64,000 nt of DNA, taken from Dictyostelium discoideum. Its lineage: Eukaryota. Positions 3,127 through 64,000 of the stretch are shown here, one piece after another. The translations under genes were made by a program, and so were the position numbers. The DNA is taken from the NCBI GenBank assembly GCA_000004695.1, contig CM000155.2, forward strand, positions 1,664,001 through 1,728,000, written 5' to 3'. Each line of letters opens with the position of its first letter. Positions within the stretch are counted from its first letter, which is position 1. Below the pieces are notes generated by a model, which searched no databases, was not told the origin of the DNA, and worked only from the letters and a program-made list of their open reading frames with translations.

Positions 3127-3231
3127 GTGTGTGTGTATTTTTAATAATAAATAATAATTAAAAAGAAAAAAAAAAAAATTAAAACTAAAAAATAATTATA
3201 TATATATATATATATATAAATATATTTATAG

Positions 3232-3990
3232 ATATGTAATCATTGTTTAAAAGAAATTAAAAAAGAAGAAGAAGAAATTAAACAAGAATGTGAAGAATGT
3301 AAAGTTTATAAATATTGTTCAATTGAATGTAAAGAGAAATCATCAATTGAATATCATAGTGTTTTATGTAAATCAACAGGATCAGGATTTAATTATTTAG
3401 AGAAACATGCATCGATAGAGAAGAGGAGATTTCCATTATTAGCAGGTAAAATATTAGCAAGAATGATAATGGGATATCATTTAGAGAAATCATCAAAATC
3501 AACATGGTTACCATTACAAATGTTATCATTTGCAAAGAAACCACCACCATTAGAATGGAAAGATGATTATTTAATTTTCTCAAGATCATTATTAAAAGGT
3601 ATTAATAATGAAAGTATGAAAAAGAAATTCGATTATGATTGGTTCGTTAGAGTAATGCAAATTCTTTACTTGAATACAATTGGTATTGATATTGATCCAA
3701 ATCAACAAAGCACCAAAATGTCATCACCAGAGTCTGGAATTGGTCTTTATTTACTTACATCATTCATCAATCATGATTGTGACCCAAATGCATTCATTCA
3801 TTTCCCTGATGATCATACGATGCATTTATCACCACTTAAACCAATTAATCCAGGTGATGAAATTACAATCTCTTATACTGATACAACAAAAGATTTAGTT
3901 GATAGAAGATCACAATTATTTGAAAATTATGGTTTTAATTGTGAATGTAAAAAATGTTTAAATGATTTATTAATTAAAAGAAATAAATAA
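3232..3990 (+). CDS. SMYD-like protein, exon 2 (MYND zinc finger CNHC...CEEC...YCSIEC...H..C; SET core NHDCDPN; post-SET CECKKC)
   Basis: Translation ICNHCLKEIKKEEEEIKQECEECKVYKYCSIECKEKSSIEYHSVLC ... FINHDCDPNAF ... ENYGFNCECKKC. Confidence 0.7.
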   Translation: MCNHCLKEIKKEEEEIKQECEECKVYKYCSIECKEKSSIEYHSVLCKSTGSGFNYLEKHASIEKRRFPLLAGKILARMIMGYHLEKSSKSTWLPLQMLSFAKKPPPLEWKDDYLIFSRSLLKGINNESMKKKFDYDWFVRVMQILYLNTIGIDIDPNQQSTKMSSPESGIGLYLLTSFINHDCDPNAFIHFPDDHTMHLSPLKPINPGDEITISYTDTTKDLVDRRSQLFENYGFNCECKKCLNDLLIKRNK

Positions 3991-4117
3991 AATAAAATAA
4001 TATTTAAATATATATAAAAAGAAGATAAAATGTTTTTATTTAATAATATTATTTTACCATATGGTGGTGGTAGTGGTGGTGGTGGTGGTGTAATTGTTGT
4101 AATTTTTTTTAAAAATT

Positions 4118-5979
4118 TTAATTTAAATATTTTTTTAACCATAATGAAATATTAACCCATTGATCTAAACGAGCATCAATTGAATCAAGACTATGACCAG
4201 TTTTTGGATACATTAAACATTTTGTTGGTACATCTCTTTCTCTTAACATACGATAATATAATAAACCTTGAGAAGGTGGAACACGAAGATCTGAATCACC
4301 TAAAGCTAATAATGATGGAATTTTGATGTTTTCAATATGGAAACTTGGTGAACATTTTCTCATTTTTTCAATTTCTTCCATTGATGGTAATGTATGATAT
4401 TGAGAGGTTGGATCAGAGAGATTAATACCAGCTTCAAAGAAACACCAATCTGGAATATCGGATAAGGTTGACATTGATGGAATATCGATTACAGGATTTC
4501 TCATGATTGAAGTTTTGACAATTGGGAATCTACTTAGATGTGCTGATAAGAAACCACCATGACTACCACCAATAACACCAATTTTATTTCTATCGATTGT
4601 ATTATCGATTTTATCGAGTGTGTAATTAATTGCTTGAACACAATCGTCAACATCCAAATCACCAATATAACCTGGTAAACAATCTACGAAATCTTTACCA
4701 TAACCTGTTGAACCTCTATAATTTGGAATTATAATATTATAACCCAATGAGAGTAAATAAGTGATTGTTGAAACATAACCAACATCTAAATTTGAATGTG
4801 GACCACCATGAATGAAAACTAAACAACCCAATGGTGAAGATTGTGTACTATTTTTATTCTTTAAGTAAATCAATTCAAATGATTTAATTGACTCTGTGTA
4901 TGGTTGTGGTGTTGGTTTTGATACTGGTACATTATGAATGGTTGCATTAAATGATTTGAAAATTGAATTACATTGTTCACTTGGTTTTGGTGAGTAAATT
5001 AATTGTTTCTCTTTATCACTACCCAAATAATCAACTAAATAAACTTTAGTTGGTTGATTTACTGATGATTCACCAATTAAATATTTCTTTGATTTAAAAT
5101 CAATATCATATAAAACATAAAGTTTTGGTTCTTCGTCACCACCATCAGTTGATGATGGAATTTTAATAATTTTCAATTCCTTTGATTCATAATTAAAAGA
5201 AACAATCATTTCAGTTGATCTAATAATTGTTGAAAATAAAAATGTTTTTTCATCAATAAATGGTCTCTCTGGTAATGATTGACAGAAAACACCTGGGAAT
5301 GAATCATTAAAATTCTTATAATCCAACAATGTTTCAAATGATTGTGGTGGTTGTTGTTGTTGAGTGATATTGTTTGAAGACCAATTTAAAGAGAAAATCT
5401 TTGAACAAGTATCATGAGCATAAATTCTTTCGTTAAAACCCAAGAAAATTAATTTTGAAGAATCTGGTGTAAAACGTGGTGATCTATAACAACCATTATT
5501 ACCATTTGGAATTAAATTTACAATTTGCAATGGTGTTGTTAATTTGGTTTGTTTTGGATCCAATTTTTGGTTCTCTTTCCATTGATTTCTAGCATTAATA
5601 AACTCTTTGAAATTTAAATGATACAATGAACTTGATCTATTGAAACATGCTCTAATACCAAGTTTTCTTTTACCAAAATTCCAACCAACATAAACTAATC
5701 CCTCACCATTTGGTGTCCAAATGACTTGACCTGCTGATATCTTTTCAGATGGGAATGGTTCAACTGGGAATACAACCTCCTTTTCAATATCTAATATAAA
5801 TATTGATGGATTTGCAACTGGTGAATAAGTTTCACCCCAATCATCTCTAAATACAAATTGATCACCAATAGCTTTATCTTTTGGTTCCTTATCAAAAAAT
5901 CCTGTTACATTTAATTTTGAATCTGCAATAAATGCTACATATTTCTCACATGGTGACCATGAAAAACTACCAAACCATT
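4118..5979 (-). CDS. Acylamino-acid-releasing enzyme / acylaminoacyl peptidase (S9C prolyl oligopeptidase family), exon 2
   Basis: GFSWSPCEKYVAFIA, GDQFVF..DWGE, GGPHS, YRGSTGYG and GGSHGG (catalytic Ser motif) align along the length with APEH. The N-terminal MEFLLILFIFFFFKKKK of the tracked ORF is read-through of the intron. Confidence 0.8.
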
Positions 5980-6073
5980 CTTTTTTTTTTTTAAAAAAAA
6001 AAAAAATAAATAAAATTAATAAAAATTCCATTATTATTATTATTATTATTATTAAATTTTATTAATTACAAAC

Positions 6074-6506
6074 CATCATTTAAAATTTTTTTATGAATAT
6101 CTTTTGAAGTAATTGAAGTAATTAAATGTGAACCATCAGTAATATCAAAAGAGAATTCGAATTCAGTTGAAGGGTTCTCTTTAATTGTTAAAACTTTCTT
6201 ATGTGATGGTGATACTGATATGATTGAAGTTGCTAATTCTTGTTGAATTGCTGATGAAATTACTTGGTTTTTCTTTGATGATGATGATGAATCTTTTAAA
6301 ATTGTTTTTTGTGACATATAAAATTTAGTTTTCTTATTGGTGATATCAATTTGAGATACAATGATTGATGCTGATGTTTGATTTTCATTACTTTCATCAT
6401 TGTTTGTAAAAAATGCGTTGTTGACTGTTGGAATTGATAATAACTCCCTGTAAACTTTAGTTGTATCTTCTCTATACTTTATTTCTTGTTCACTTAAACT
6501 TTCCAT
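6074..6506 (-). CDS. Acylaminoacyl peptidase, exon 1
   Basis: MESLSEQEIKYREDTTKVYRELLSIP resembles the APEH N-terminus. A phase-1 GTTTGT donor at 6073 and an AG acceptor at 5981/5980 give a 94-bp intron and the junction ...ILND-E-WFGSFSWS, which parallels human ...DDCFGCLSWS. Confidence 0.65.
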
Positions 6507-7354
6507 CTTTTATGTCTCTTTTTGAAAAAAAATTAAAAAAATAAAAAAAATTAAAAAAATTAAAAAATTAATTTAAACCACCACTTATTAAAAAAAAAAA
6601 ATAAAAAAAATAAAAAATTAAAAAAAAATAAAAATAAATTAAATTGCGAACTTAAAAAAAAAAATTCTCACACAAACTACCTTTCATAATTTTTTTTTTT
6701 TTTTTTTTTTTTTGTCAATAAATTAATCAATTAAAGATCTTTGATTTAACTCATATTTTTTTTTTAAAAAAAATAATAAAAAATAAAATTTAATAATTGT
6801 TTTAAAGGGAATGAAAAACAAATTAAAAAAATTTTTTTTTTTTTTATAAAAAAAAGTGTAAAATCTGAATATTTTTTGTTTAATATCAATAAAAAAAGTA
6901 AAAAAAAAAAAAAATGATTTTCCAAAAAAAATTAGAAAAAAGAAATTTATTAAATGTTAGGGTTAGTTATTTTTTTTCCCCCTCCCGAAAAATTTTAATA
7001 TTTTTAATAATAAAAAAAAAAAAATATGGGTTTTTTTTTCCCGTCCATTATCATATTTGCATCATTTTTTTTTTTTTTTATTTTTTATTTAATTTTTAAT
7101 TTATTTTTTGAGTCAATCCTGAAAAAAAAACCAAAAAAAAAAAAACCAAAAAAAGAAATTAAAAAAAAAAAAAAAAAAAAAAAAACAGTGTTTATATTCT
7201 TTTGATGGTAACCGAAAGAAATCAAAATAACATATAGTTGAAACATAAACTCTTACAATTCTTTAAAAATAATAATAACCCCAAAAAAAATAAAAAAAAT
7301 TAAAAAAATTAAAAAAAAAATAAAAAAAAAAAAAAAAAATAAAAAAATAAAAAA

Positions 7355-9121
7355 ATGATCAGAAACTTAATCAAAACAAAAACAAAAATAAATGAAATTA
7401 AATTTAATAGGAATTTTTTATCAAGTTCAATATTAAAAATAAGAAATCATAATGATGATAGTAATAATATATTATTTTCAAATTCAAATACCATTGAAAT
7501 TCAAAATCTCCCATTAAATATAACAACAACTGATCTATTGAATCAATTTAAAAATTATAAAATATCACCACATGGAATTAAAACAAAATATAATACAGAT
7601 AAAGGATTTGCTTATATTACCTTTGAAAATAATCAAGATTTTATGAAAGCAATAGACAAGAAATTAATTTCATTCAATAATTTAAATTATTCAATTGAAC
7701 CAATTAAACAATCATTATCATCCTTATTATTATCATCATCATCAAATGAAGAAGAAGAAGTAACAACAACAACTAGTGAAACTATAAATACAAAAGTTGT
7801 TCAACACGAAAATGTAAATATAATATCATCATTAAATTCAAATCATTATAATCATTCAATATCGTATCCAAATCAGTCAGCTATTACTCAACAATTATGG
7901 TTTGCAAGAGTTAGTAAAGAAGTTAATCCAGCAATAACTGAAGCACCAAAGTTAACAACAAAAACACCAGAAGAGAGTAAAGTTGAGGTGATTTTACCAT
8001 TTAGTAGTGATTTACAATTACGTGAAAATTATTTATCCCCATATGGTAATTTAAGAATCGGTAGATTCTTGGAAGATTTAGATGCAATTGCTACAGCTGT
8101 AGCTTTTAAACATGGTGAGAATGAGAATGACGGTTATAAGAAAATGTTTGTAACTGTATCAGTTGATACAATTAAAATTCTTAGACCCTTAATTCCAGAT
8201 AGGGATATTAAAATGGAGGCTAAATTATCATGGGTTGGTAATAGTTCAATGGAGATCATGATTAGAGTTTTCTCAAAAGATAATGACAAAACTCAACAAT
8301 GGGATCCTGTCCTAGTCGCATTCTTTACAATGGTTGGTGTAGATCCAAAAACAATGAAACCAACACTTATCAACTCATTAAAAGTTGAAACTCCAACAGA
8401 GAGGAGACTATTCGCTGAAGGTGAACAACATAAATTACAACGTTTAAATTCAAATCAGCAATCACTTGAAAAATTACCACCAACTCCAACTGAATTACAA
8501 ACTATTCATAATCTATTCATGATTTCAAAACAACAACACCAATCATCAGATGTTGTTGATAGAAATTTCATTCCAATGAATTCAACAAGTTTAGAAACTG
8601 TTATTTTATGTCAACCTCAAGAAAAGAATATTAACGGTCAAATTTTTGGTGGTTATTTAATGAGAATGGCATTTGAAACTGCTTATACAACTTGTTTTAT
8701 GAAGTTTCCAGAATCATTACCAAGATTTAGAAGTATTAGTGGTTTGAAATTCCTTAAACCTGTTGAAATTGGTGATATTCTTAATATGGAATCAACCATT
8801 ACCTACTCAAAGCCAATGAACTCTGAAGATGATTGTGAAAATCAAACTTATTATACTCAAGTAGAAGTTTTAGCCTATGTCACCGACCCTTCCATTGGTG
8901 AAAAAAAACTTTCAAATGTTTTTAATTTCACTTTTTATTGTGCTCCTTCAAAATCTCAAAAAGAAAAATTACAACAACAAAATACAAACAAAAAATTAAA
9001 ACAAATTTTACCTCAAACTTATTCCGAAGCAATGCGTTATTTAACTGGAAAAAGAATTATTGATAGTTATATAGAATTTGATCAATCACCTTCTAAAATG
9101 GATATTTTTAAAAATGAATAA
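7355..9121 (+). CDS. Acyl-CoA thioesterase (ACOT9-like, tandem hotdog domains) with an N-terminal presequence-like region and an RRM-like segment
   Basis: ILCQPQEKNINGQIFGGYLMRMAFETAYTTC and RIGRFLEDLDAIATAVAF match the two hotdog folds of ACOT9/10. The N-terminal ...IEIQNLP...KGFAYITFENNQDFMKAI looks like RNP2/RNP1. Confidence 0.7.
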   Translation: MIRNLIKTKTKINEIKFNRNFLSSSILKIRNHNDDSNNILFSNSNTIEIQNLPLNITTTDLLNQFKNYKISPHGIKTKYNTDKGFAYITFENNQDFMKAIDKKLISFNNLNYSIEPIKQSLSSLLLSSSSNEEEEVTTTTSETINTKVVQHENVNIISSLNSNHYNHSISYPNQSAITQQLWFARVSKEVNPAITEAPKLTTKTPEESKVEVILPFSSDLQLRENYLSPYGNLRIGRFLEDLDAIATAVAFKHGENENDGYKKMFVTVSVDTIKILRPLIPDRDIKMEAKLSWVGNSSMEIMIRVFSKDNDKTQQWDPVLVAFFTMVGVDPKTMKPTLINSLKVETPTERRLFAEGEQHKLQRLNSNQQSLEKLPPTPTELQTIHNLFMISKQQHQSSDVVDRNFIPMNSTSLETVILCQPQEKNINGQIFGGYLMRMAFETAYTTCFMKFPESLPRFRSISGLKFLKPVEIGDILNMESTITYSKPMNSEDDCENQTYYTQVEVLAYVTDPSIGEKKLSNVFNFTFYCAPSKSQKEKLQQQNTNKKLKQILPQTYSEAMRYLTGKRIIDSYIEFDQSPSKMDIFKNE

Positions 9122-9521
9122 AAAAAAAAAAATACAAATAAAAAAAAAACATTCAAATAAATTAAATTTATTATTATTATTATGTTAGATTAAAAAATTA
9201 AAAAAAAAAATAATTAATTATTTGTGTTACTGTTAAACATTTTGAAAATGAATTTGATGTTAATAATAAAACACATTTTGTAACTGGATGTGTTAGTAAA
9301 ATTAAATAAAGAATTGATTCAGAATAATTTTGAGGTATAATTCTTTTTATTTTTTTTTTTTTAATAATTTTTTTTTTTTTCTATTATTTTTTTTTATTAT
9401 TTTTTTTTTTACAAAACATTTTATGTTATATATATATATTACTATTAAAAAGAAAGAATCTGGAAAAAAAAAAAAATATACCAATTTTTTTTCTTTCTTT
9501 TGTTTTTTTTTTTTTTTTTTT

Positions 9522-9773
9522 TTATTTCCATAATTTGTTGATTGACATATTTTGTTCTGAATCCTTCTTCATAACTTTAGAAACTGCCATTTCAAAATCT
9601 TCTTGAGATACATGAACTCTTCTTTCACGAAGAGCATACATACCAGCTTCAGTACAAACTGCTTTTAATTCTGCACCTGAAGCACCATTCATTTTATCTG
9701 AAATCTTTTTAAGGTTAATTCCTCTTGTTAAATTCATTTTTCTTGAATGGATCTTTAAAATATCTAAACGACC
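9522..9773 (-). CDS. psmC5: 26S proteasome regulatory ATPase subunit Rpt6 (PSMC5), exon 2
   Basis: [21 protein letters not shown]...[26 protein letters not shown] is near-identical to the PSMC5 C-terminus. The acceptor AG lies at 9775/9774. Confidence 0.85.
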
Positions 9774-47272: not shown

Positions 47273-47824
47273 ATGACAACTAAATACATAGTTTTGGTTA
47301 GAGCACTTAGTACAAAGATTAAAATGAAAGATTTAAAAGATCAATTAGAAAAGATTAAAGGATTTAAAAATTTAAAAACATTTTTTACAACTGGAAATAT
47401 TATTGTGGATGTACAACAAACAATGACTAAAAAAGAAGTTTGTATGGAGATTTCAAATGTTCTATCAAATGAATACCAAATGGAGAAACCATTGATGGCA
47501 ATTTTCAATATTGAAGAATATAATGATATATTATCATCAAACCCATATGAAAAATCAAATGAAACTAAAACTGTGATTTTCTTTCCAATTAATGAATTTT
47601 TAAAACAATCTGATTGTGATAAAGATAAAGATTTCATGACAAAATCATCTCAATGGCAATTAGTAAATGGTGTCATTTGGTATTTAGGTCCAACAACTGG
47701 TACTGCTTCTGATGTTAAAATTTTTAAATTAATTGAAAAAAAGATAAAACCAGGTTCAAATCATGAATATACATTTCGTACTTTAAGATCAAGTCAAAAA
47801 ATATTAGATACTGCAAATAAATAA
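47273..47824 (+). CDS. DUF1697-like protein (bacterial-type family), 183 aa, intronless
   Basis: MTTKYIVLVRALSTKIKMKDLKDQLEKIKGFKNLKTFFTTGNIIV follows the DUF1697 N-terminal pattern (M..YI.LLRGINVGG...M..L...L...GF..V.TYI.SGNVVF). Length is typical of the family. Confidence 0.5.
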   Translation: MTTKYIVLVRALSTKIKMKDLKDQLEKIKGFKNLKTFFTTGNIIVDVQQTMTKKEVCMEISNVLSNEYQMEKPLMAIFNIEEYNDILSSNPYEKSNETKTVIFFPINEFLKQSDCDKDKDFMTKSSQWQLVNGVIWYLGPTTGTASDVKIFKLIEKKIKPGSNHEYTFRTLRSSQKILDTANK

Positions 47825-48315: not shown

Positions 48316-48459
48316 GTATGAAGTTGAAATAGTAAAAAAAAAAAAAAAATTTAATTTCTAGATTTTAATGAAAGTAAAAAAAAAAAAAAAAAAACTAATT
48401 TTTCATTTTTTTTTTTTTTTTTCTGTTTCAACAAAAAAAAAAAAAAAAAAAAAAAAAAT

Positions 48460-49525
48460 TATTGGGGATTTTGGAATTGTAAAGAATGTTGGTTAGATTT
48501 AATAACAGAAGGTGAGCAGCGTAAAGATTGTAAATGTATAATTCAATCAATTAATGATTTATCAAGATCAATATTCATTGAAAATAAATTTTCAAATCAA
48601 AAAATAAATTGTCCATTTTCATTTTCATATATAAAGAAAGATTATCAATATATTGGAGGTAGTGGTGATGATGATGATGATTATGATGATGAAAATGATT
48701 CAATACCATTAATTAAAGATAAAGAGAATGGATGTAAACAAATAATTACAGTGGAAGAATTAGATACACATTTAAAACAATGTCAATTTAAATTTGTTGA
48801 ATGTCCAAATAAAAAGAATGGTTGTGAAATTCAATTTAGATTTAACAAATTAGAGATTCTAAAAGATCATGAACAAATATGTGATTCAAGATTTGAAAAA
48901 TGTAAACATTGTTTAGAATTAATTGTATTTAAAAATTTAAATTCTCATCAAGATCAATGTATTAAAACATTAATTGAGTGTATTAGTTGTAAAAGTCACA
49001 TTGAAAGAGGAAAATTGAAAAAACATTTAAATCTAAATTGTCCAAATGAAATCGTTGATTGTGCATTCAAAGCCAATGGTTGTAATGATCAAATGAAAAG
49101 AGTCGATCTATCACAACATTTATTAATTTCAAAACATATGTTATTCATTTCAGAATCGATTGAAAAACAGCAAAATCAAATCCAACATACTAAAAGAAAA
49201 TATTTAAAATTAAAAAGAAAAATTCAAGAAATTAATGAAAATTCAATTAATAAAATTTATGAAAATGATTGGTTCATAAAGAATTTTACAAAATCAAAAA
49301 AAAAAGTTGGTTCTTTTTTTTTAGGTCCTGAATTTAAAATTGGTTCTTTTGAATTTGGTTTATCATTGTATCCAAATGGTAGAATTGATACATTTGAAAA
49401 TCATTTAGTAATTGCATTATTTGAAAAAAGTGGTCTTTATAAATCAGTAACTGTAGAATCTGATTTTACATTAATTAATAAAGAAGAATCTGATAATAAT
49501 AATAAAAACTATTTTTTTGAAAATT
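48460..49525 (+). CDS. TRAF-like protein, main exon (rest of RING, TRAF-type zinc fingers, start of MATH domain)
   Basis: ...NCKECW..., repeated C/H-rich TRAF-zf motifs (ECPNKKNGCEIQF...HEQIC, ECISCKSHI...HLNLNC, CAFKANGC) and a MATH domain (WFIKNFTK...GSFEFGLSLYPNG...HLVIALFEKSG). The 5' boundary is uncertain. A GTAAGT donor lies at 49526. Confidence 0.6.
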
Positions 49526-49835: not shown

Positions 49836-50074
49836 TAAAAATAAAGGTAAAAAAAAAAAAAATAAAGAAAAAAATTTAAAAGTAAATAAAAAATAAAATA
49901 AAATTGCGGTATAGGCCAATCTTTGGAAATTAAAAAAAGTCAGAAATCTAGATTTTTTTTTTATGAATTATTTTAAAATGATTAATTTTTAAAAAAAAAG
50001 TTTTCCACATACACACGGTTGGAGCTTACAAAATTAGGTAAAGATATATCTAGAAAAAAAATAATAAAATAATA

Positions 50075-50735
50075 AAAAATAAAAAATACCAATAATATAA
50101 TTATTTTAATAATAATAAAAAAAAAAAAAAATAAAAAAAATAATAATAAAATAAAATTAATAACAAAGTATTAAAAGTAAGAGATTTGGTTATTTAAAAT
50201 AATTACCAATATTGGAAAGCTATCATGTTTACGAATAATTTGACCATTATTATAGTATTGTGGCTCTCTATTTTGGTCTTTTATAGTATATATTTGATCA
50301 TGAACGGAACCTGGGAATCCCTCAGGATGTAGTAACAATAATCTGTATGATCTAGTGCATACCTCACAATGAAATTTGACCACATGACTTTGCTTTTACC
50401 AGAATAGTATTTTTTTTTTGGATTTGGTAATCAGTGGGAGTTTCAATAACAATAGAGGTAGATTCAGCAGCAATTGCACGATAAAGCACATTAGATATAG
50501 GATGTTTTAAAAAGCCAACTGATTCAACAAGTTTATCATATCTCTTTTCCATTTTTTCCTTGCATACAACTCAAAGTGAATGAATGGTTGACTATAGTGA
50601 TTTTGAAATGTTTTTGGACTAATACCAAAAGTAACACATATTTCATAAATTGGAAGATATTGTTTCCAATATAAGAGAGTCTAGCACAAAAAAAAATAAA
50701 AAATAAATAATGTTATTAATTAATTCATTTTATTT
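50075..50735 (-). repeat. Arm A of a large inverted duplication. It carries decayed PIF/Harbinger-like (DDE_Tnp_4-like) transposase coding remnants
   Basis: The reverse complement aligns at about 90% with 51740-52258 but contains an extra roughly 190-bp segment flanked by the 8-bp direct repeat ggtcaaat. Peptides: ...YDKLVESVGFLKHPISNVLYRAIAAE..IVIETPTDYQIQKK, YYSGKSK, VKFHCEVCTRSYRLLLLHPEGFPGSVHDQ. Confidence 0.6.
50171..50552 (-). pseudogene. Harbinger/PIF-type DDE transposase remnant (frameshifted; catalytic D positions substituted)
   Basis: In order: IVIETPTDYQIQ (cf. AIDGTHIPIQ), YYSGKSK (cf. YYSGKKKRH), then KFHCEVCT...EGFPGSVHDQ (cf. ...vcD....GWPGSVHDS), spread across three frames. 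Confidence 0.5.
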
Positions 50736-51339
50736 TTTACATTTTTTATTTTTTTTTTTTTTTGTTTATAATTTTTTTTTTTTTTTACATTTTGTTTAAT
50801 TTATGACTTGGTGTAATTTTACCAAATTATTTAATTTAATTAAATCTAATTTAATTTAATTTAATTTTTTTTTTTTTCATTTAATTTTAAAAAATGAGTA
50901 GTTTTTAATGGAACATATTATTGTCTAAAAATAGATATTTATTTTTAAAAATAATATTATTTTTTTTTTTCTATTCAAAATTAGAAATTTCCAGAAAATC
51001 TTAAAAAATACGTATTTCATTTTAAAAGTTAAGGTAATTTTGTTTTTTTATCTAAAAAAAAAAAACATATTATTGTAAAAAAGAATATGTATTTTTGGAA
51101 TAATAATATTATTTTAAAAATTTACACAAAAATCTTTTGTCTTTATGAACATTTTAAAATCAAAAATTAAATTAAATTAAATTAAATTAAATTAAATTAA
51201 ATTATATTAAATAGGTATAATTTTTTGACTTGTGGAAAAAAAAAATTATTATGTGAAGGGGTAAAAATTTTTACATAAAATTTAATTATGTTAATCGGGG
51301 TGTTAAATTTTTCTTTAAATTTTTTTTTTTAAGTTGTAT

Positions 51340-51480
51340 TTTTTTGATTAAATAAATAAATTCATAATTATTTCCTTCTATTAATAAAAAAAAAAAAAAA
51401 AAAAAAATTCATAATTATCTCCTTCTATCAATAAAAAAAAAAAATAAATAAATTCATAATTATTTCCTTCTTTTAATAAA
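51340..51480. repeat. Three tandem copies of an approximately 50-bp unit (aaattcataattatttccttctattaataaaaaaaa...) inside the spacer of the inverted duplication
   Basis: Directly visible: ...aaataaattcataattatttccttctattaat(a)n / aattcataattatctccttctatcaat(a)n / aaataaattcataattatttccttcttttaat(a)n. Confidence 0.8.
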
Positions 51481-51739
51481 AAAAATGGTAAACTCTTGAC
51501 CAAGAAAAAAGCAAATGACTCAACCAAATTTAATGTTGTATTCTTTTGGATTAGAACCTGATATTATAGATAAATTATTAAATTTAATTAATGAAAATGA
51601 AGAACTTAAAGAAAAACGTATTAAAGATAAACATATAATTTGTGTGGGTGTTTAATATTAAAATAAAACTATAAAAAATAAATATAATAATAAAAATAAA
51701 AATAAAAATAAAAAATAAAAAATAAAAATAAATGTTGAA

Positions 51740-52258
51740 AATGAATAAATTAATAACATTATTTTTTTATTTTTTTTTTTGTGTTAGACTCTCTTGTGTT
51801 GGAAACAATATCTTCCAATTAATGAGATATGTGTTACTTTTGGTAATAGTCCGAAAACATTTCAAAATCACTATAGCCAAACCATTCATTCACTTTGAGT
51901 TGTATGCAAAGGAAATAATGGAAAAGAGATATGATAAACTTGTTGAATCAGTTGGCTTTTTAAAACATCCTATATCTAATGTGCTTTATCGTGCAATTGC
52001 TGCTGAATCTACCTCTATTGTTATTGAAACTCCCACTGATTACCAAATCCAAAAAAAATTACTATTCTGGTAAAAGCAAAAGTCATGTGGTTAAATTATT
52101 CGTAAACATGATAGCCTTCCAATCTTGAGTAATTATTTTAAATAACCAAATCACTTCCTCTTACCTTAATAATTTGTTATTAATTTTTATTTTATTATTA
52201 TTATTATTATTATTTTATTATTACAATAATTATATATTATTGGTATTTTTTATTTATA
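51740..52258 (+). repeat. Arm B of the inverted duplication. It carries the HTH-like N-terminal part of the transposase remnant and lacks the 190-bp DDE-core segment
   Basis: Tracked ORF 51732-52073 ...FQLMRYVLLLVIVRKHFKITIAKPFIHFELYAKEIMEKRYDKLVESVGFLKHPISNVLYRAIAAESTSIVIETPTDYQIQKK, then a stop. Confidence 0.6.
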
Positions 52259-52689
52259 AAAATTAAAATCTGGGGCAATATAAAAAAAAAAAAAATAAAA
52301 AAAATAAAAAAAAAAAATGTGAAAATTAAAAAAATAAAAAAAAATAAAAATATTTACACCAACTTTTCATTTTTACATAAAATTTATAAAAAAAAAAAAC
52401 AAAAAAAAACAACAACAACAACAAATAGTAATTCAACAATATATTTTTTTTTATGTTTTTTTTTTTACATTTTCTTTTTGGCTTCACATTACTGTTTTTT
52501 TTTTTTTTTTTTAAAATTTTAATCAAACTATTTTTGTGCGATGTCAATTATTTCTAGATTTTTATCTCTTTTTTAGATTACTAAAACAAATATGATAAGA
52601 TTAAAATATTAAAAAAAAAAAATAAGGGGGAATTCAATATTAATTTATTTTTAAAAATGATTGTTTGTATATATACTATATTTTATTTT

Positions 52690-52850: not shown

Positions 52851-53007
52851 AGATTAAAATTTACCAATCATTTTATAACCAAGACACTATCTTGATTTTT
52901 TTTTTTTTTTTATTTTTTTTTTTTTTTAAAAGTTGCTGTTTATCCATTTAATTTTTAATTATTTAATACTTTTTTTTTTTTTTTTTTTTCTTTATTCTTA
53001 CTAAATT

Positions 53008-53046
<39 letters not shown>

Positions 53047-53074
53047 TTATTTTTGTATAAAAAGTGAAATAAAA

Positions 53075-53408
53075 ATGATTGAAAGTCAAAGGGAATTTAA
53101 TTGTATTGGTGGTGATAATCAGAATGGTGTCGCAGTTATTGGTGTAGGTTTTAAAATCCCATTAGATCTAGAAAATTGTTTATCAAGTCCAAGTGAATTA
53201 TATTCAGCATTATTTAATGAATTTGATAGTGTAACAAAGAATACAAGTTCACGTTGGTCTGATAACTATTTTAAAAATGGTGATATTGTTAGTCTTAGTG
53301 CAGGTTTATTACCACTCAGAGAAATTAAATCATTTGATCCAACTTTTTTCGGTATTAATCCATCCGATGCAGATTTAATTGATCCTCAACAAAGATTATT
53401 ATTAAAAT
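53075..53408 (+). CDS. Type I polyketide synthase (PKS) gene 1, exon 1 (N-terminal KS region)
   Basis: MIESQREFNCIGGDNQNGVAVIGVGFKIP...DPQQRLLLK then a phase-1 GTAACT donor. Typical Dictyostelium PKS N-terminus. Confidence 0.8.
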
Positions 53409-53480
53409 GTAACTTTTTTTTATTTTATTTTTATTTTTATTTTTTTATTATTAACAAATTTAATTAAATAAATATATTAG

Positions 53481-53798
53481 GTGTTTGGAATGCATTAGAA
53501 GATGGTGGTATTGACCCAATCAGTATTCGTTCATCAGATACTAGTGTCTACATTGGTTGTTCAACTATTGACTATTTTCTTTTAAATAGAAATCCTGTTG
53601 ATCCTCATAATCATGGTATTCAAACCGCAAGTTATTCAATTCCAAATAGAATATCATATTGCTTTGATTTTAGAGGTGAAAGTTTGTTTGTTGACACTGC
53701 ATGTTCATCATCACTAAATGCAGTTCATCTTGGTTACAATTCAATTATAAATTTAAAATCAAAATTATCAATTGTTGGTGGTTCCAATTTAATTTTAG
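53481..53798 (+). CDS. PKS gene 1, exon 2 (KS active-site Cys: DTACSSS)
   Basis: [27 protein letters not shown]...[17 protein letters not shown]...GGSNLIL. A GTATGA donor lies at 53799. Confidence 0.8.
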
Positions 53799-53914
53799 GT
53801 ATGAATTATCTTTTTATTTATTTTTTTTTTTTTTTTTTTTTTGTACTATTATTAATATTATTATTAATATTATTATTATTATTTTTATTTTACTGACATA
53901 TATATATTTCCTAG

Positions 53915-54568
53915 ATCCACAAAATAGTATTTTTTTTTCTAAACAACAGGTGAATGGTCCAAGTGGTAAATGTAATAGTTTTTCAGAAGAAGCAGATGGC
54001 TTTGTTCGTAGTGAGACAGTTGGTGTAGTAGTATTAAAGAATTTAAAAGATGCAATTAAAGATGGTGATAGAATTTATTGTGTAATTCAAGGTTCAAATT
54101 CAAATGTTGACGGAAATTATGAAAAATTAAATTATATTTCACCTTCAAAATTATCACAAGCTGAAAATATTACCAAAGCATTAAAATCAACAAATGGTGC
54201 GGTGAATGCATCTGATATTGATTATTTCGAATGTCACGGTACTGGTACACCAACTGGAGATCCAATCGAATTAGAAGGTATATCAATTGCATTAAATAGA
54301 ACTCAACAATCTACAACATTATCAAATCCACTTTTAATAGGTTCAATTAAATCAAATATTGGTCATGGTGAGGCAAGTAGTGGTATAGCCAGTTTAATTA
54401 AATGTTGTGTAATGTTTAAATATCGTCAATTTTTACCAAATATTAATTTCAAAACACCAAATCCATTAATCAAATTTAAAGAATGGAATTTAAAAGTTGT
54501 AACTGAACCAGTTCCATTCAATAATAATAAACAAACTATTATGGCAATTAATAATTTTGGTGTTTCTG
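53915..54568 (+). CDS. PKS gene 1, exon 3 (KS C-terminal half with the two catalytic His residues)
   Basis: [23 protein letters not shown]...[14 protein letters not shown]...[11 protein letters not shown]...NNFGVSG. A GTAAGA donor lies at 54569. Confidence 0.8.
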
Positions 54569-54652
54569 GTAAGATTTTAATATAACAATAATAAGAGCAA
54601 AACAAGATAATCAAACTACTAATATTTACTATTTTTTATTTTTATTAAATAG

Positions 54653-57600
54653 GATCAAATTGTTGTATTATTTTATCAGAATATAAAAGTAATAACAACA
54701 ATAATAATGATTTTAAAGCAACAACACATTTAAAATCAAAGAAATTTATTATACCATTTTCATCAAATTCCTCAACATCATTAGACAATTATAAATCATT
54801 ACTTTCAAATGAAACAAATAATTTTCAAGATTTTGTTATTAAACAAATTAATAATAAATCAACATCATTAATTCAAAGATCAGTAATCATTGCAAGTAAT
54901 TGGAGTGAATTTAATGAGTCATCAAATGAAATTCAATCAAATATTAAAAAATCAATTATATCTAATATCACAATTAAAAAAAAGAATGCAGTTACAGTAT
55001 TTGTATTTTGTGGTCAAGGTTCGCAATATAATAAAATGGCATTATCATTATATGAAAATGAACACATTTTCAAATCAACAATGGATAAATTAGATAAAGA
55101 ACTATCCAAACACTATGGGTATTCAATTTTAGAAAAATTAAGATCAATTACAGATGAAGATTTAGTAACAATTCATCAACCAATTTTAGCAATTCCAGTT
55201 AATGTAATGGTTCAAGTATCTCTATATGAATTGTATAAACATTGGGGTATTAAATCAGATATTATGGTTGGTCATTCGTTTGGAGAAATCGCTTGCTCTT
55301 ATTGCTCTGGTATGGTTGATTTTAAAACATTATGTTATTTAACATACCACAGATCAGTAGCTCAGAATAAAACAATTGGATCAGGTAAAATGTTATCAAT
55401 TAATATTGGTGCTAAAGAATACTTGGATTCTTATTCAACTAAATATCCATCGGTAGAAATCGCATGTTATAATAGTGAAACATCAATCGTTATTGCAGGC
55501 AATGAAGAATTATTAAATGAAATTTCAAAAGATTTAAAATCAAAAGATATTTTTACAGCAATGTTACCATCATTATCAGCATTTCATACAACACACCAAT
55601 CAGTTATTAAAGATGATATTTGCTCATTGAATTTTAAATCGACATTATCAAAAATAACAGTATTTTCCACAGTCACATCTAATCAGTTTGGTATTAATAA
55701 TAATAATAATAATAATAATAATCAACTTAATTCAAATTACCTTTTTCAAAATGTTATTCAACCAGTTAAATTTAGTGAGACAATATCAAATATATATAAA
55801 TACATTGAATCAAATGATATGGGTAATGAAATAACATTTATTGAAATTGCACCACACCCAACATTACAATATTATTTAAATCAAATGAAGTCACAACAAT
55901 CAGAATACTTTAATAATGGTGAAAAGATTTCAATCTATTCAGCATGTAATAAAAAGAAGAATGATTATAATGAATTTTTAAAAACAATTTCAACATTGTT
56001 TGTAAATGGTTATAATAATATTAATTTTAAATCTCAAATTATTAATAATAATAATAATGATAATAATAATAATTTTAATTTACCATTATATCAATGGGAT
56101 GATAATGAATATTATAAAATTCATCCAACATGGAAAAAAGCAAATAAAAATGGACCATCAATTAATCATCTTGGAAATCTAAATGATTCTTCAATTAAAT
56201 CATTTAAAACCTATATTAATACAAGAAAACCACAATTCCAATGGTTAAAAGGTCATTCTTTAAAAGGAAAAGTTGTATTCCCTGGTATGGGTTATATTTC
56301 AAATTTACTCTCAGTTTATAATATGAACCAAGATATTACAATTAATGAAATTCAATTCAAAAGTGCATTTATTTTAGTCGATGGTGTTAATAACTGTTTA
56401 GAGACATCGATTGTACCATTAACAAAGAATGAATTCAATATTAAATTTCATTTTAAAGATTTAAAAACAAATAAATGGGTATTATGTGCAAATGCTAATT
56501 ATAGTTTATTTAAACATAATGATAATAATGATAAACTTGATATTGAAAAATTAAAATCTAATTGTAATTATACAATAATTTCAAAAGATGAATTATATAA
56601 TAATATTAGAGCTAAAAGTGGATTGATTTATAAAGGTTTATTTCAAGGTGTTAAAGAAGCTTTCATTGGTAATAGATGTTCGTTAACAGTTTTATCATTA
56701 AATGAAATTGAAAACCAACAAGAGTTTAAACATTTATTAGAGAATAGAAACTTCAATTCATTATTTAATACAGCAATTTTAGATTCATGTTTACATGGTT
56801 CACTTCACTCAAAAGAACAATCTCAAATTTATTTTGACAAATGTGAAGGTTTTAAATATTATTCAAACAATATTAATTTAGCAACTTCGAAAAGAAATGA
56901 GTACAAAGAGATTAATGTTTATATTGAAACGAATCCCGTGATCAATTCAACAGTTATTGTAAGTTTAAAAATTATGTTACCAGATGGAACATTATTAATT
57001 GAAATTCAAAAAGTAGTTTGTAAATCATCAATACCAATTATTGATAGTACCTCAGTTATTCAACCATCACCAAAAGATTTACACACACCATATTATCAAC
57101 CAAAAAACTCATTAATTAAACCACCACAATCATTTAAACATTTACATTGTATGAAAGAATTTGCAAGTATAGAATCTGATAATAGAGAAATGGTGTATAT
57201 GTCAATTTATCATTTAATTTTTAAAGCCATCAATGCTAGATCTCCAACAAAAATCAATTTAGAATCCCTTGAAAATTTAACATTAGATCAATTTAAAGAA
57301 TTAATAAAAGACAGTGCAGCAAATATTCAACGTTCCAATCAATTTATATATGAATGTTTAAAACTATACCATACAAATCATTCAAATTATAAAAAAAATC
57401 AAATTAAAGATTTTATTAAAGAATGTGAAGATTTTAATGGATATAATCAAATAATTTTTAAAACAATTAAAATCTATGCAAAATCATTATTCCCATTACC
57501 AGATGACGATCCATTTACAGATACAATTCAATCATTGTTTGAAGATGATCAATTAGAAAACGTTTACATCCATTTAAAACACCTTTATCCAGTAAACAAT

Positions 57601-58074
57601 TTATTAAGTGAAATCGTTTTTCAATCAATTAAACCAATAATAAATCAAACATCAACATTTAGAATTTTAGAAATAGGAGCAGGTTATGGTACAATCTCAC
57701 AATTAATATTTGACAAACTCGAACAACTATTAGCAGATAATTTCACATCATCAAGAATTGATATAGAATATACATTTACTGATATTTCAAATACTTTCTT
57801 ACCAAGAGCAAAAGAGAGATATTCAAAATATAAAAGATTCAACATAATTTACAAACTCTTAGATTTAGAACTTCCTTTAACAGAGGGAATTCAAGATTTT
57901 AGACCATTATATTATGATATAGTTGTTATGTCAAATGTTTTACATGTTGTAAAAGATATTAATTTCAGTACAAATGAAATCTATAAAGTTTTAAAACAAA
58001 ATGGTCAATTAATATTTGTAGAACCAACATATAAAAATTTATATCTTGATACTATATTTGGCATATTTCCACAA
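54653..58074 (+). CDS. PKS gene 1, exon 4 (linker, AT with GHSFGE, DH with HSLKGKVVFP, C-methyltransferase with LEIGAGYGT)
   Basis: Continuous frame from the tracked ORF 55036-58089 extended upstream to the AG at 54651-52. A GTAAGT donor lies at 58075. Confidence 0.8.
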
Positions 58075-58136
58075 GTAAGTAGTTATTAATATTTATTATT
58101 ATCTATTTATTAATCTAATATATTTTTTTTTGTAAG

Positions 58137-58504
58137 TGGTGGTCATTTAATGATGATATTAGAACTGATAGATGTTGTCTTGAACCTTCAAAATGGTTTG
58201 AATTTTTAGAAACAATTAATTTTAAAGATACAATTATTTTGGGTCAAGATAACAAAGAAATCTTGAAAAATGTTGAAAATTCAATAATATTAGTACAAAC
58301 TAGAAAACCATCACAACTTGAATTATCGATAAATAATTCACCATCAACCAACCAATTCAAATCTTTTGAAAACATAATATTATATACTGATGATAACCAA
58401 CAACCAAATGATTGTAGTGAAATTATCGATTTATTAAAATCATTAGAACTACCAATTAAAATAATTAACAATATAGACCAATTTAATCAAATTATTAAAA
58501 CACA

Positions 58505-58571
<67 letters not shown>

Positions 58572-61053
58572 AATAACAATTTAATAATATTTTTAAAATC
58601 AGTTAATCAATTAAATACTAATAATTATAAAGATATTACATTTGAATATGTTCAAATCAATCAAATTTTAGTAAAATTAGAACTTGAAGAAAATTATAAA
58701 TTATTATTAATAACTAATAATTCTCAATCAAGTAATTATTTATCAAATTCATTAATTGGTACATCAAGATATTTATTTGCAGATATAGTATCATCAAAAT
58801 TAGATATTATTACAATTGATTTCGATACCGTTTCAATTAAGAACCATCAAAATGTTATATCAGTTATTAACCATTTATTAGATTCAAAAGATAATAGTGA
58901 AAGAGAATATTATATTATTAATAATGAAATTAATATTGAAAGATATAAAAATGAATCAAATATTAAACATCAATTAAAATCAAAAACCTTTCAAGAAAAT
59001 AAAGATGAATTAATGGTACAATTAGACTCAAATTTAGAATATAGATTAAAATCAAAATCAAAACAAGAATTAAAATCAACTCATGTTGAAATTCAAGTTA
59101 AAGCAATTGGAATTAATTATAAAGATTATGCAACTTACAGTGGTTTAATCGATTCAATCATAGAAATTGATAAAGATAAAGAAAAGGATGAAAATTATGA
59201 CCAAAATTATCCAAGTATTGGTAATGATTTTAGTGGTGTAATTACAAGAATTGGTAGTGATGTTAGAAAGTTTAAAGTTGGTGATGAAGTATGTGGTTTA
59301 GCACCTAAAACATCCGCTTCACATATTATCACTGAAGAAGGTTATCTTTGTAAGAAACCATCAAACATTAGTCACTCTGAAGCTGCATCATCAGTAACAG
59401 TTTACACAACATCATTTCAAAGTATTTATAGCATTGGTGATTTAAAGAAAAATGAAACCATATTAATTCATTCAGGTAGCGGTGGTATTGGTTTATCTGC
59501 ATTGGAAATATTAAAATGGAAAAATCATCAAGGTTACATATTTGCAACTGTAGGCTCTGAAGATAAAGTTAAATATTTAACAGATACCTATGGTTCATTC
59601 ATAACTGGTATATATTCATCCAGAGATAAGGACTATCAAGATCAAATTAAAGAGAAATTAAAATCATTAGGTTGCGATATCGATCATCAAGGAGTAGATC
59701 TAATATTGAATACACTATCAGTAGAGTACATGGATTCAAATTTTAAATGTTTAAATCAAAAAGGTAGATGTATTGATCTTTCAATCACTCATTTAACTCC
59801 ATTTGATTATATGGATTATAATAAATTCAAATTCAATGTTTCCTATGGTAATATTGAACTTGTTGTATTACCATCCAAAATTATTAAAGATCATTTAAAA
59901 AAGATGCTTAAAGCCTTTTCATTAGGTAGTTTAAGATTTATACCTATTGTTGAATTTTCAAATTTGAATATAAGAAATGCAGTCGAATACATTAATCAAC
60001 GTAAACATATTGGTAAAATTGTAGTAAAGAATGATGTTGATTTTATAAATAAATTATTTATTGAACAACAACAACAACAAAACTCTGTTGAAAATAATGA
60101 AATTTTAATGAAAGATAAATATGATATTTCAAATTTAGAACTTGGTAAAAATATATTATTAACTGGTCAAACAGGTATTATTTTAACTATATTAAAATGG
60201 TTATATAAACATTCAAATAATTCAATTGAAAATATTATTATAATTTCCAAATCAAAATTAAAATGGGAATTAGAATTATTTATAAATGAATCAACTAATA
60301 ATAGAATTAAAATTCATTATAAACAAGCTGACGTTGGTAATAATAATGAATTAAATCAGTGCTTTGAAGAATTAAGATTACGACATTCAATTGAAGATAT
60401 TAATTCAATTTTCCATTTTGCATTTATTAATGATATTGGTCAATTTGAAGATGTTAATATGAATCGTATGGATATCGCTCATCATGCTAAAGCAATTGGT
60501 TCACTTAATTTACATAACCAATCTATTGAACGTAAATGGAATATTAAACAATTTGTATTGGCATCTTCGGCGTTATCAGTATTTGGTGGAGACAACCAAT
60601 GTTGTTATATCAGTGCTTGTTCAGTTTTAGACTCCTTATCAAAGTATAGAAAATCAATTGGTCTTCCATCTTTATCAATTAACTTTGGTGGTGTAACATC
60701 AACTGGTTTCGTATCTCGTAGTGGTGCTGTCGAAGCTAACCTTGAAAGTTCTATTATCAATTTAATTACACCACAATCATTAATTTCTTCATTGGATTTA
60801 TTTATTCAAAACTCTCAAACCTTTTCAAACTATACTCATTTCAATTTCATATATGATAATATAGAATCATATTCACTCAACAGAATGTTATTTAAATTTG
60901 ACTATTTAATCAACCAACATTCCTCATTAGTTTCAAATAAAAGATTAGGTGGAATAAATGAAAATAATAATATTGGTGATTTATTAGTATCAAAAATTGG
61001 TGAACTTTTATCAATTGAGCCATCAAAATTGAATTTAGATTTTAGATTAGTTG
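58137..61053 (+). CDS. PKS gene 1, exon 5 (ER with GSGGIG; KR with LTGQTGII Rossmann motif)
   Basis: The frame continues across a 62-bp intron (TTGTAAG acceptor). A GTAAGT donor at 61054 is phase 1. Confidence 0.8.
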
Positions 61054-61131
61054 GTAAGTTTTGTTTTTTTTTATTTATAATTTTTATTTTATTATTACTA
61101 ATCTTTTCTAAAAATTAATAAATAAAATTAG

Positions 61132-61454
61132 ATTATGGTTTAGATTCATTGGTTATCGTTCAACTTAAAAATTTTATTGATAAACAATTCCAACCTCATT
61201 TAATTTCAATTTTACAATTACAAAATAATAAAATCTCAACAACAATAGAAATTATAATCAAAGGATATAATAATAATCAAAATAAAAAAATTAAAAATGA
61301 ACAATCAAATGACATTCCAAGTGTAGTTCAAAAAGAAACTATCAAAGATAACAATGAAAATAAAGACGATATAAAAATCGATATGGATGATAAAAAAGAA
61401 AATTTAAAAGGTAAAAAAGAGAATATTGATGACAAAAAAGAAAATAACAATTAG
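61132..61454 (+). CDS. PKS gene 1, exon 6 (ACP with phosphopantetheine-attachment motif DYGLDSL; Lys/Asn-rich tail)
   Basis: AAATTAG acceptor, then D-YGLDSLVIVQLKNFIDKQF...NNN*. The six exons total about 2655 aa with architecture KS-AT-DH-cMT-ER-KR-ACP. Confidence 0.8.
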
Positions 61455-62128
61455 CCATAATTTCAAAATCGTTAGTTTTATAAAGTTTTTGTATTCAAAA
61501 CAATAATTAAAAAATAAAGTGATAATAATTTTACAAAAAATATTGTTACAAAAAAACAAAGATTAACCAAAAAAATTGATTTAATTAAATGGTTTTATTA
61601 TTTATTTTTTTTTTTTTAAAATTTAATTAATTTATAAAATTATACTTCATTTTTTAAAAAGATAAATTAGTGGGGGGACAAATTAATGGTCATTTTCTTT
61701 TTTTAAAATTCCTTATTTTCTCTTATTATTACTATATAGAGTTTAAATATTTTTTTATTTTTTTTTTTTTTTTTTTTTATTAAACCAAAATAGGGGCAAA
61801 AAAAACAAAAATACAAAAAAATTATTATTTTTTTTTTTTTTTATTTGCCATTTTCACCACAAAATAACATTACTACATAAAAATAAATAAATAAATAATT
61901 TTTTTTTTTTTTTATTTCAAAAACCGTTCTTGTGTTAAATCGAAATGGGCTTGTAGAATTTAAAAATGATAGTAAGTTTATTACAATATTGGGTGTTTGA
62001 AATTTTTTTTTTTTTTTCTATTTATTTTATTTTTAATTTAATGTTTTAATACCTTTTTTTTTATTTTTTTTTTAATTAGTTTATTTATTTATTTATTATT
62101 TTAGTATATCATATTAAGTGGAATACAA

Positions 62129-64000
62129 ATGATTAAAAGTCAAAGAGAATTTAATTGCATTTGCGGTGATAATCAAAATGGTGTCGCAGTTATTGGTGTA
62201 GGTTTTAAAATACCATCAGATCAAGAGAATTGTTTATCAAGTCCAAGTGAATTATATTCCGCATTATTGAATGAATTTGATGGTGTAAAAAATGATACAA
62301 GTACGCGTTGGTCTGATAACTATTTTAAAAATGGTGATATTGTTAGTAATAGTGCAGGTTTATTACCACTCAAAGAAATTAAATCATTTGATCCAACTTT
62401 TTTCGGTATTAATCCATCAGATACTGATTTAATTGATCCTCAACAAAGATTATTATTAAAATGTAACTTTTTTTTATTTTATTTTTTATTTTTATTTTTT
62501 AATGTAAATTATTATTAACAATTTTAATTTATTTAAAAAATTATATATATATTATTATTATTAGGTGTTTGGAATGCATTAGAAGATGGTGGTATTGACC
62601 CAATCAGTATTCGTTCATCAGATACTAGTGTCTACATTGGTTGTTCGAATATCGATTATTATCTTTTAAATAGAAATCTTATTGATCCTCATAATCATGG
62701 TATTCAAACTGCAGGTTATTCAATTCCAAATAGAATATCATATTGCTTTGATTTTAGAGGTGAAAGTTTGTTTGTTGACACTGCATGTTCATCATCACTA
62801 AATGCAGTTCATCTTGGTTACAATTCAATTTTAAATTCAAAATCAAAATTATCAATTGTTGGTGGCTCAAATTTAATTTTAGGTATGAATTATCTTTTTA
62901 TTTTTATTCGGTTATTATAATTTATTATAATTTATATTATTATTATTATTATTATTTTATTTTATTTTTTATAAATACTAACATATATATAATTTCTAGA
63001 TTCACAAAATAGTATTTTTTTTTTCTAAACAACAGGTGAATGGTCCAAGTGGTAAATGTAATAGTTTTTCAGAAGAAGCAGATGGCTTTGTTCGTAGTGA
63101 AACAGTTGGTGCGATAGTATTAAAGAATTTAAAAGATGCAATTAAAGATGGCGATAGAATTTATTGTGTAATTCAAGGTTCAAATTCAAATGTTGACGGA
63201 AATTATGAAAAATTAAATTATATTTCACCTTCAAAATTATCACAAGCTGAAAATATTACCAAAGCATTAAAATCAACAAATGGTACAGTCAATGCATCTG
63301 ATATTGATTATTTCGAATGTCACGGTACTGGTACACCAATCGGAGATCCAATTGAATTAGAAGGTATATCAATTGCATTAAATAGAACTGAACAATCTAC
63401 AACATTATCAAATCCACTTTTAATAGGTTCAATTAAATCAAATATTGGTCATTGTGAAGCAAGTAGTGGTATGGCCAGTTTAATTAAATGTTGTGTAATG
63501 TTTAAATATCGTCAATTTTTACCAAATATTAATTTCAAAACACCAAATCCATTAATCAAATTTAAAGAATGGAATTTAAAAGTTGTAACTGAACCAGTTC
63601 CATTCAATAATAATAAACAAACTATTATGGCAATTAATAATTTTGGTGTTTCTGGTAAGATTTTATTATAAAAATAATAAGAACAAAAATAAATCATCTA
63701 ATATTTACTATTGTTTATTTTTATTAAATAGGATCAAATTGTTGAATTATTTTATCAGAATATAAAAATAATAATAATAATAATAATAACAATAACAATA
63801 ATGATTTTAAAGCAACAACAAATTTAAAATCAAAAAAATTTATTATACCATTTTCACCAAATTCATCAACATCATTAGACAATTATAAATCATTACTTTC
63901 AAATTTATCAAATGAAACAAATAATTTTCAAAATTTTGTTATTAAACAAATTAATAATAAATCAACATCATTAAATCAAAGATCAGTAATCATTGCAAGT
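62129..64000 (+). pseudogene. PKS gene 2: a tandem paralogue of gene 1 (about 90% nt identity, same exon structure) carrying a +1 frameshift (T10 versus T9 at 63015-63024) and a TGT-to-TGA nonsense change at 63743-45. It runs off the window end
   Basis: Exon 1 62129-62462, exon 2 62565-62882, exon 3 from 62999, exon 4 from 63732. The frame breaks after ...DSQNSIF. The exon-4 start reads GSNC* where gene 1 reads GSNCC. Confidence 0.6.

Follow-up and report, generated by a model that had tools for sequence, protein, structure and literature searches.

A tandem pair of polyketide synthase genes in Dictyostelium discoideum: an intact gene, a copy with at least five disabling lesions, and indications of gene conversion between them

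We analysed a tandem pair of type I polyketide synthase (PKS) genes of Dictyostelium discoideum located at the end of a stretch of 64,000 nucleotides (assembly GCA_000004695.1, contig CM000155.2, positions 1,664,001 to 1,728,000 of the forward strand), which is called the window throughout and whose own coordinates are used unless stated otherwise. The first gene of the pair (gene 1) has an uninterrupted reading frame, and the second (gene 2), which continues past the end of the window, is broken in several places. With high confidence we read the locus as a whole as an intact gene 1 beside a dead gene 2, the two going back to an old duplication followed by gene conversion, with a late knockout of gene 2 in the laboratory lineage. 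An earlier interpretation made from the letters of this DNA, here called the sequence-only reading, had already described an intact gene with a duplicated pseudogene behind it, in a family evolving by tandem duplication, and this description held, with every coordinate in it correct.

Concerning gene 1, the coding sequence of 7968 nt gives a spliced translation with a terminal stop and none internal, and the nine motifs quoted for it were all found (DTACSSS, ECHGTG, NIGH, GHSFGE, HSLKGKVVFP, LEIGAGYG, GSGGIG, LTGQTG and GLDSL). The KS domain possesses the Cys-His-His triad, with Cys186 in DTACSSS, and matches the Pfam families ketoacyl-synt (E=1.4e-59) and Ketoacyl-synt_C (E=9.7e-29); the AT domain has the serine of the GHSxG motif (GHSFGE at residue 642; Acyl_transf_1, E=2.8e-41), and the phosphopantetheine serine of the ACP is in GLDSL at residue 2551 (ACP_SdgA_C, E=2.6e-31). 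In the reducing loop and the C-methyltransferase, KR, Methyltransf_12, ADH_N and ADH_zinc_N_2 all pass the Pfam cut-offs. PKS_DH_N scores 22.8 bits, below its cut-off of 27, and the DH is called because this sub-threshold match is accompanied by the HSLKGKVVFP motif. No release domain was recognisable in gene 1 by motif and Pfam analysis. Spliced translation and Pfam agree with the sequence-only reading, in which gene 1 was intact, with six exons, 2655 aa and all its signatures (Table 1).

By its motifs and domains, gene 1 is an iterative highly reducing type I PKS of the order KS-AT-DH-cMT-ER-KR-ACP, and its predicted chemistry would comprise malonyl loading, methylation and full reduction of the growing chain on one ACP. 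A gene model of 2655 aa is annotated at the position of gene 1 also in a further assembly, GCA_054883475.1. The closest protein matches come from the D. discoideum isolate ACTFIW (90%) and from D. citrinum (86%), and all others are at most 55% identical. The protein collection that was searched lacks the exact gene 1 product of AX4 and AX2, so a missing match there is no proof of absence for the locus; a chimeric query joining the DUF1697 and CARMIL proteins of the flanks matched no Dictyostelium protein in the collection, though both protein clusters are in it.

Table 1. Coordinates of the PKS pair and its flanks (window positions, unless amino acids or codons are indicated)
Feature	Position	Strand	Description
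Gene 1	53075-61454	+	intact highly reducing type I PKS by motifs and Pfam; 6 exons, 2655 aa
Gene 1 exons	53075-53408, 53481-53798, 53915-54568, 54653-58074, 58137-61053, 61132-61454	+	every intron GT..AG
Gene 1 KS	aa 18-396		Pfam
Gene 1 AT	aa 551-888		Pfam
Gene 1 DH_N	aa 963-1034		Pfam, sub-threshold
Gene 1 Methyltransf_12	aa 1441-1555		Pfam
Gene 1 ADH_N + ADH_zinc_N_2	aa 1891-2206		Pfam
Gene 1 KR	aa 2250-2429		Pfam
Gene 1 ACP_SdgA_C	aa 2518-2605		Pfam
Spacer between copies	61455-62000		AT-rich, low-complexity; short low-complexity BLAST matches only
Gene 2 duplicated 5' flank	62001-62128	+	about 128 bp; homologous to 52950-53074 upstream of gene 1
Gene 2, window part	62129-64000	+	exons 62129-62462, 62565-62882, 63000-63654, 63732 onward past window end
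Lesion 1	63015-63024	+	T10 for gene 1 T9 (53930-53938); +1 frameshift, codon 223, KS domain
Lesion 2	63743-63745	+	TGT>TGA nonsense, codon 440, GSNCC strand, KS domain end
Lesion 3	codon 1779		gene 2 past window; 1-bp deletion, TCAAAT to TC-AAT
Lesion 4	codon 2115		gene 2 past window; TTA>TAA
Lesion 5	codons 2542-2544		gene 2 past window; 7-bp deletion, one unit of a direct repeat, just before ACP serine

The ATG of gene 2 lies at 62129, 675 bp past the stop of gene 1. Alignment to gene 1 bears out this start and the conserved intron positions, both proposed before, and 5/5 introns are GT..AG over the full copy. The latter can be followed in GCA_054883475.1, where gene 2 occupies about 8.4 kb (1226-9614 of the locus L007), of which ~6.3 kb lie past the window end. 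The two copies had been thought to be about 90% identical, a value that proved too low: their exons are 95.9% identical in nucleotides and the conceptual proteins 93.4%, with introns at about 84-85%.

The extra T at 63015-63024 on which the sequence-only reading had relied is present, and the frameshift reaches a stop two codons on; the same site has T9 or TTTTCTTTT in the seven other copies. The change from TGT to TGA was seen as well, and TGT stands in 7/7 other copies. Comparison with the remainder of gene 2 had been proposed as a check, and in GCA_054883475.1 this remainder revealed three more disabling lesions (lesions 3 to 5), the last of which removes one unit of the repeat TTTAGATTTTAGAT; in addition, the C-terminal tail is scrambled. 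When eight homologous copies, drawn from five genomes, were aligned, none of the five lesions, the two in the window included, recurred outside gene 2. It should be noted that lesions 3-5, like every comparison across strains, were each seen in one long-read assembly per genome. On the evidence of its frame and introns, gene 2 is best classed as a non-processed (intron-retaining) tandem duplicate pseudogene with at least five independent disabling lesions, and it is predicted to have no functional product.

The copies differ in other respects too. Beside the KS catalytic motifs gene 2 shows NIGHGE>NIGHCE (63453-63455) and GTGTPTGDP>GTGTPIGDP (63340-63342), two changes that are taken here together with the overall pool of its non-synonymous changes. 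In-frame length differences are found mostly in asparagine-rich (AAT)n linkers: a poly-Asn tract (58506-58550, gene 1 codons 1700-1714) is 42 nt shorter in gene 2, and further differences of +15 and +9 nt follow the KS (gene 1 positions 54688 and 54805). Triplet-repeat instability is usual in Dictyostelium coding regions.

We also evaluated whether gene 2 could be intact and its lesions, above all the homopolymer T10, errors of sequencing or assembly. Assemblies err most often in the length of homopolymers, and the window and GCA_054883475.1 do disagree at long homopolymers, but these disagreements are confined to non-coding runs >15 nt, whereas over 60904-64000 (L007 1-3097) the two assemblies are 100% identical without gaps, with T10 and TGA in both. 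Moreover, two of the lesions are substitutions, and three more lesions follow downstream. Over 20.5 kb the window and GCA_054883475.1 differ at 9 indel sites, all non-coding, which marks GCA_054883475.1 as an assembly in its own right, made from essentially the same strain. De novo assemblies combining Nanopore and Illumina data have been published for nine wild isolates and the laboratory strain AX2-214 (PMC12745789); most simply, GCA_054883475.1 would be the AX2-214 assembly and the window the AX4 reference. The sequence-only reading had argued against an artefact, and the recurrence of T10 and TGA in an independent Nanopore and Illumina assembly of the same laboratory lineage strengthens that view, leaving an artefact hardly conceivable. 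The locus L007 was reached through the CARMIL and 230-aa proteins of the loci L001, L002 and L004, rebuilt in spliced form by an exhaustive GT..AG search, and then through their clusters, in which anchors were found for every strain.

As regards the differences between the assemblies, eight sites are homopolymers >15 nt (positions 38960, 39209, 44497, 46861, 48406, 49805 and 52970 are among those listed), and one is a complex non-coding site at 48456-48462 with a substitution and short gaps. The run is longer in the window at 8/8 homopolymer sites, by 34 nt for the A run at 46861, which suggests that the long-read assembly shortens homopolymer tracts systematically.

To compare the constraint on the two genes, single-nucleotide codon differences were polarised with the other six sequences and counted by parsimony. 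Of the changes on the branch of gene 1, 32 are non-synonymous and 38 are synonymous (omega about 0.21), as compared with 46 and 25 on that of gene 2 (omega about 0.45); the counts differ with a Fisher p=0.028, a modest effect. Constraint on gene 2 is thus modestly relaxed relative to gene 1, not absent. This partial relaxation fits either a late inactivation of gene 2 or conversion importing selected sequence into it. Since exons are 95.9% identical and introns about 85%, both copies have been constrained for most of their history.

A further possibility is that gene 2 still yields a functional protein, either by splicing past its lesions or as shorter products. Both window lesions are <30 nt from an intron acceptor, and in-frame acceptors exist 13 nt past the acceptor of intron 2 (AATAG/TA, the slash marking the junction) and 27 nt past that of intron 3 (TTATCAG/AA). 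Furthermore, the annotation of GCA_054883475.1 splits gene 2 into two automated models that carry Pfam domains, one of 2069 aa (L007 1063-7907), which ends exactly at the TAA, and one of 417 aa (7965-9449). However, use of the alternative intron-3 acceptor would cost the KS its conserved terminal strand, GSNCCIILS. Codons 1779 and 2115, with their lesions, lie well inside exon 5 (2.9 kb) and distant from any splice site, and the loss of 7 bp immediately upstream of the ACP serine puts the ACP out of frame. Without KR or ACP, a split KS-AT-MT-ER protein cannot work as an iterative PKS, and the omega of gene 2 is higher than that of gene 1. A functional product of gene 2 is, on balance, highly unlikely, and the 2069-aa and 417-aa models are annotation artefacts. 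A bypass of both window lesions by alternative acceptors was considered separately and rejected, given the three more lesions deep in and at the end of exon 5.

The same locus was then compared across other genomes. The order of the flanking genes is kept in all genomes examined, with DUF1697 and TRAF/MATH genes upstream and a gene of ~230 aa followed by CARMIL downstream; the loci that reach further downstream continue with an 800-aa gene and then a p450 gene. D. citrinum has one PKS, apparently intact (2657 aa). ACTFIW (locus L001) has one PKS as well, with three +1 insertions and a TAA at codon 2033, and because of these frame lesions its 2515-aa model (GCA_054859355.1, L001 10001-18256) lacks the ER domains. 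In ACTFIY (L004) only an MT-ER-KR-ACP remnant of 1288 aa is left, KS-AT being lost, and of the TRAF/MATH gene a fragment of 99 aa remains. A tandem pair is found in ACTFIR (L005/L008), where copy 1 has a TAA at codon 1239, and copy 2, annotated as three fragments (GCA_054859385.1, L008 1532-9618), carries TAA stops at codons 297 and 1271, has lost 1 bp at codon 2467 and has larger deletions as well. A second such pair occurs in ACTFIZ ('cf. discoideum'), with two full-length models of 2660 and 2669 aa, apparently intact. To judge from these lesions, the same PKS locus is decaying independently, and by different lesions, in other isolates.

The age of the duplication was addressed with trees and site patterns. 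On whole exons, the two AX4 genes group together with 100% bootstrap, and the two ACTFIR copies group with ACTFIW, again with 100%. When AX4 is compared with ACTFIR, 97 sites group the copies by strain, 76 by copy position and 15 crosswise, and the sites of the position type are concentrated in blocks, at 56617-57034, at 57379-58134, at 59315-59375 and in the 3' tail. Different segments support different groupings: over 53075-56500 the copies group by strain (98-100% bootstrap), whereas over 56550-58140 gene 2 joins ACTFIR copy 2 and ACTFIR copy 1 joins ACTFIW, each with 100%. In the latter segment ACTFIZ copy 1 is in the copy-1 state at 24/33 sites and ACTFIZ copy 2 in the copy-2 state at 29/33, and the single gene of D. 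citrinum is in the copy-1 state at 24/33. The single gene of ACTFIW resembles copy 1 in the 5' part and copy 2 in the 3' part, a mosaic that fits a pair collapsed through unequal crossing-over. These conflicting groupings argue for one old duplication, and its homogenisation by repeated gene conversion, in different segments of different lineages, would be the simplest reading.

Alternatively, the pair could be a recent strain-specific duplication, with the pairs of other isolates arising independently. This would account for the clustering of whole-gene copies by strain at 100% bootstrap, and for the single-copy state of ACTFIW and D. citrinum. It is contradicted by the 76 position-type sites in blocks against a noise level of 15 crosswise ones, and by the 100% bootstrap joining gene 2 and ACTFIR copy 2 in 56550-58140. 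Equally, the ACTFIZ copies bear matching copy-specific states, and the ACTFIW gene has the composition expected after collapse of a pair. We consider a recent and repeated origin quite unlikely and keep to the old duplication with conversion, although several observations count against the latter. In the distance trees, every segment puts the two ACTFIZ copies side by side, as a recent duplication would also have it, and the sharing of the same duplication by ACTFIZ rests only on the site patterns of 56550-58140. A common duplication junction was not shown by BLAST, the spacers of the different strains being too AT-rich and of low complexity. Finally, the omega of gene 2 is 0.45, not about 1, so the relaxation is only partial.

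According to this scenario of an old duplication, the tandem duplication would have happened after the split from D. citrinum and before the D. discoideum isolates and ACTFIZ diverged. Repeated gene conversion would then have kept the two copies about 96% alike, so that their low divergence would be due in part to conversion. Copy 2 would have been under purifying selection most of the time, its knockout coming only in the lineage that gave rise to the laboratory strain, and the whole pattern would be one of birth-and-death, as expected of a dispensable secondary-metabolism gene. The sequence-only reading had called gene 2 a young pseudogene: this is right for the lesions, which are young and private to the lineage, but not for the duplication, which appears old, the pair being present also in ACTFIR and ACTFIZ.

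A more general proposal is that the locus forms a natural decay series, in which an old duplication, gene conversion and independent inactivation are found in most sampled isolates of the D. discoideum clade; we regard the case for and against it as evenly balanced. If it is true, the polyketide would be only conditionally useful and the presence or absence of the pathway polymorphic in nature, and the pseudogene could also donate or accept conversion tracts for the live gene. With gene conversion at work here, the low divergence of PKS paralogues in tandem does not show that they duplicated recently. The annotation also has practical consequences, as automated long-read annotation turns broken PKS copies into coding models and PKS counts per isolate are thereby inflated.

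The region has 15-30% GC and short AT-rich introns, as in Dictyostelium. The homology of gene 1 to the ACTFIW locus stops near 61480, and for the spacer between the copies no clear homologue was found by BLAST in the flanks of single-copy haplotypes. On the upstream side of gene 2, 62001-62200 is 79% identical to 52950-53146 and also matches the upstream regions of the PKS genes in L001 and L002; a MAFFT alignment of the pair agrees. Beyond ~128 bp upstream the promoters of gene 1 and gene 2 are unrelated. About 2.5 kb upstream of gene 1 (49962-52491) are missing from the syntenic ACTFIW locus (L001). They contain an inverted repeat with arms of ~390 nt (50412-50802 and 51666-52058) around an 860-nt centre, 99% complementary over a 150-nt core, and each arm is in or beside a small gene model of 107 aa in GCA_054883475.1; the open reading frame at 51732-52073 in this repeat matched no Pfam family. 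The segment may be an insertion or an inverted duplication beside the promoter of gene 1, i.e. of pks42 if the gene is identified as follows.

The identity of the pair can be approached from its neighbours on chromosome 6. Upstream, the single-exon DUF1697 reading frame (47273-47824) has a product identical to that of AX4 DDB_G0292482 (XP_629647.1) and to a protein of GCA_054883475.1; downstream of the PKS pair in that assembly lies CARMIL (DDB_G0292386), whose cluster representative is the AX4 protein. In Table S6 of Sucgang et al. 2011 (PMC3188802), DDB_G0292544 is pks42, of 2658 aa, and carmil is DDB_G0292386; pks40, pks41, pks44 and pks45 are placed elsewhere, there is no protein-coding pks43, and no other protein-coding PKS is listed near the locus. 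For AX4, five PKS pseudogenes broken by stop codons are also reported (PMC9618038). The locus studied here shares with pks42 and its adjacent PKS pseudogene in AX4 this chromosomal neighbourhood, with DDB_G0292482 on one side and DDB_G0292386 on the other, as well as a single coding PKS of ~2655-2658 aa with a stop-interrupted neighbour; the numbering of the protein-coding genes skips 43. Gene 1 is thus very probably pks42 (DDB_G0292544). For gene 2 the probable identity is the catalogued pseudogene pks43, a name that we infer from the gap in the numbering. The published pks42 has 2658 aa and gene 1 has 2655, a discrepancy that speaks against these names, which are drawn from neighbourhood and length, not from a sequence record. 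The literature search returned no paper on pks42 and none naming pks43 or its pseudogene ID.

The gene pair has almost certainly been catalogued already in this well-annotated model genome, and the AX4 reference is left unchanged, since about 40 PKS genes and five stop-interrupted PKS pseudogenes were already reported and the pair fits among them. What is added here are three extra lesions, the probable old duplication with conversion and the apparent independent decay elsewhere, which are of modest specialist interest.

Among known enzymes, gene 1 has the same domain order and catalytic motifs as the highly reducing iterative type I PKSs of fungi and bacteria, for example the LovB/LovF class. 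It differs from these in that the dictyostelid PKSs form their own clade and have asparagine-rich linkers, that the KR nucleotide motif of gene 1 is degenerate (LTGQTG) and that the release domain is missing. The nearest relatives of gene 1 outside its orthologue group are only about 55% identical.

Within the species, clustered near-identical PKS paralogues of D. discoideum were reportedly described by Zucko et al. 2007 (Bioinformatics 23:2543). Such clusters of similar copies, with lineage-specific expansions, have coding regions far more alike than their promoters (PMC3188802), and likewise the homology of the present pair ends about 128 bp upstream of the ATG. In the accessible literature we did not find conversion across isolates or independent inactivation described for the copies of a PKS cluster. 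To the known PKS clusters of D. discoideum, this locus adds cross-isolate evidence pointing to gene conversion and to independent inactivation.

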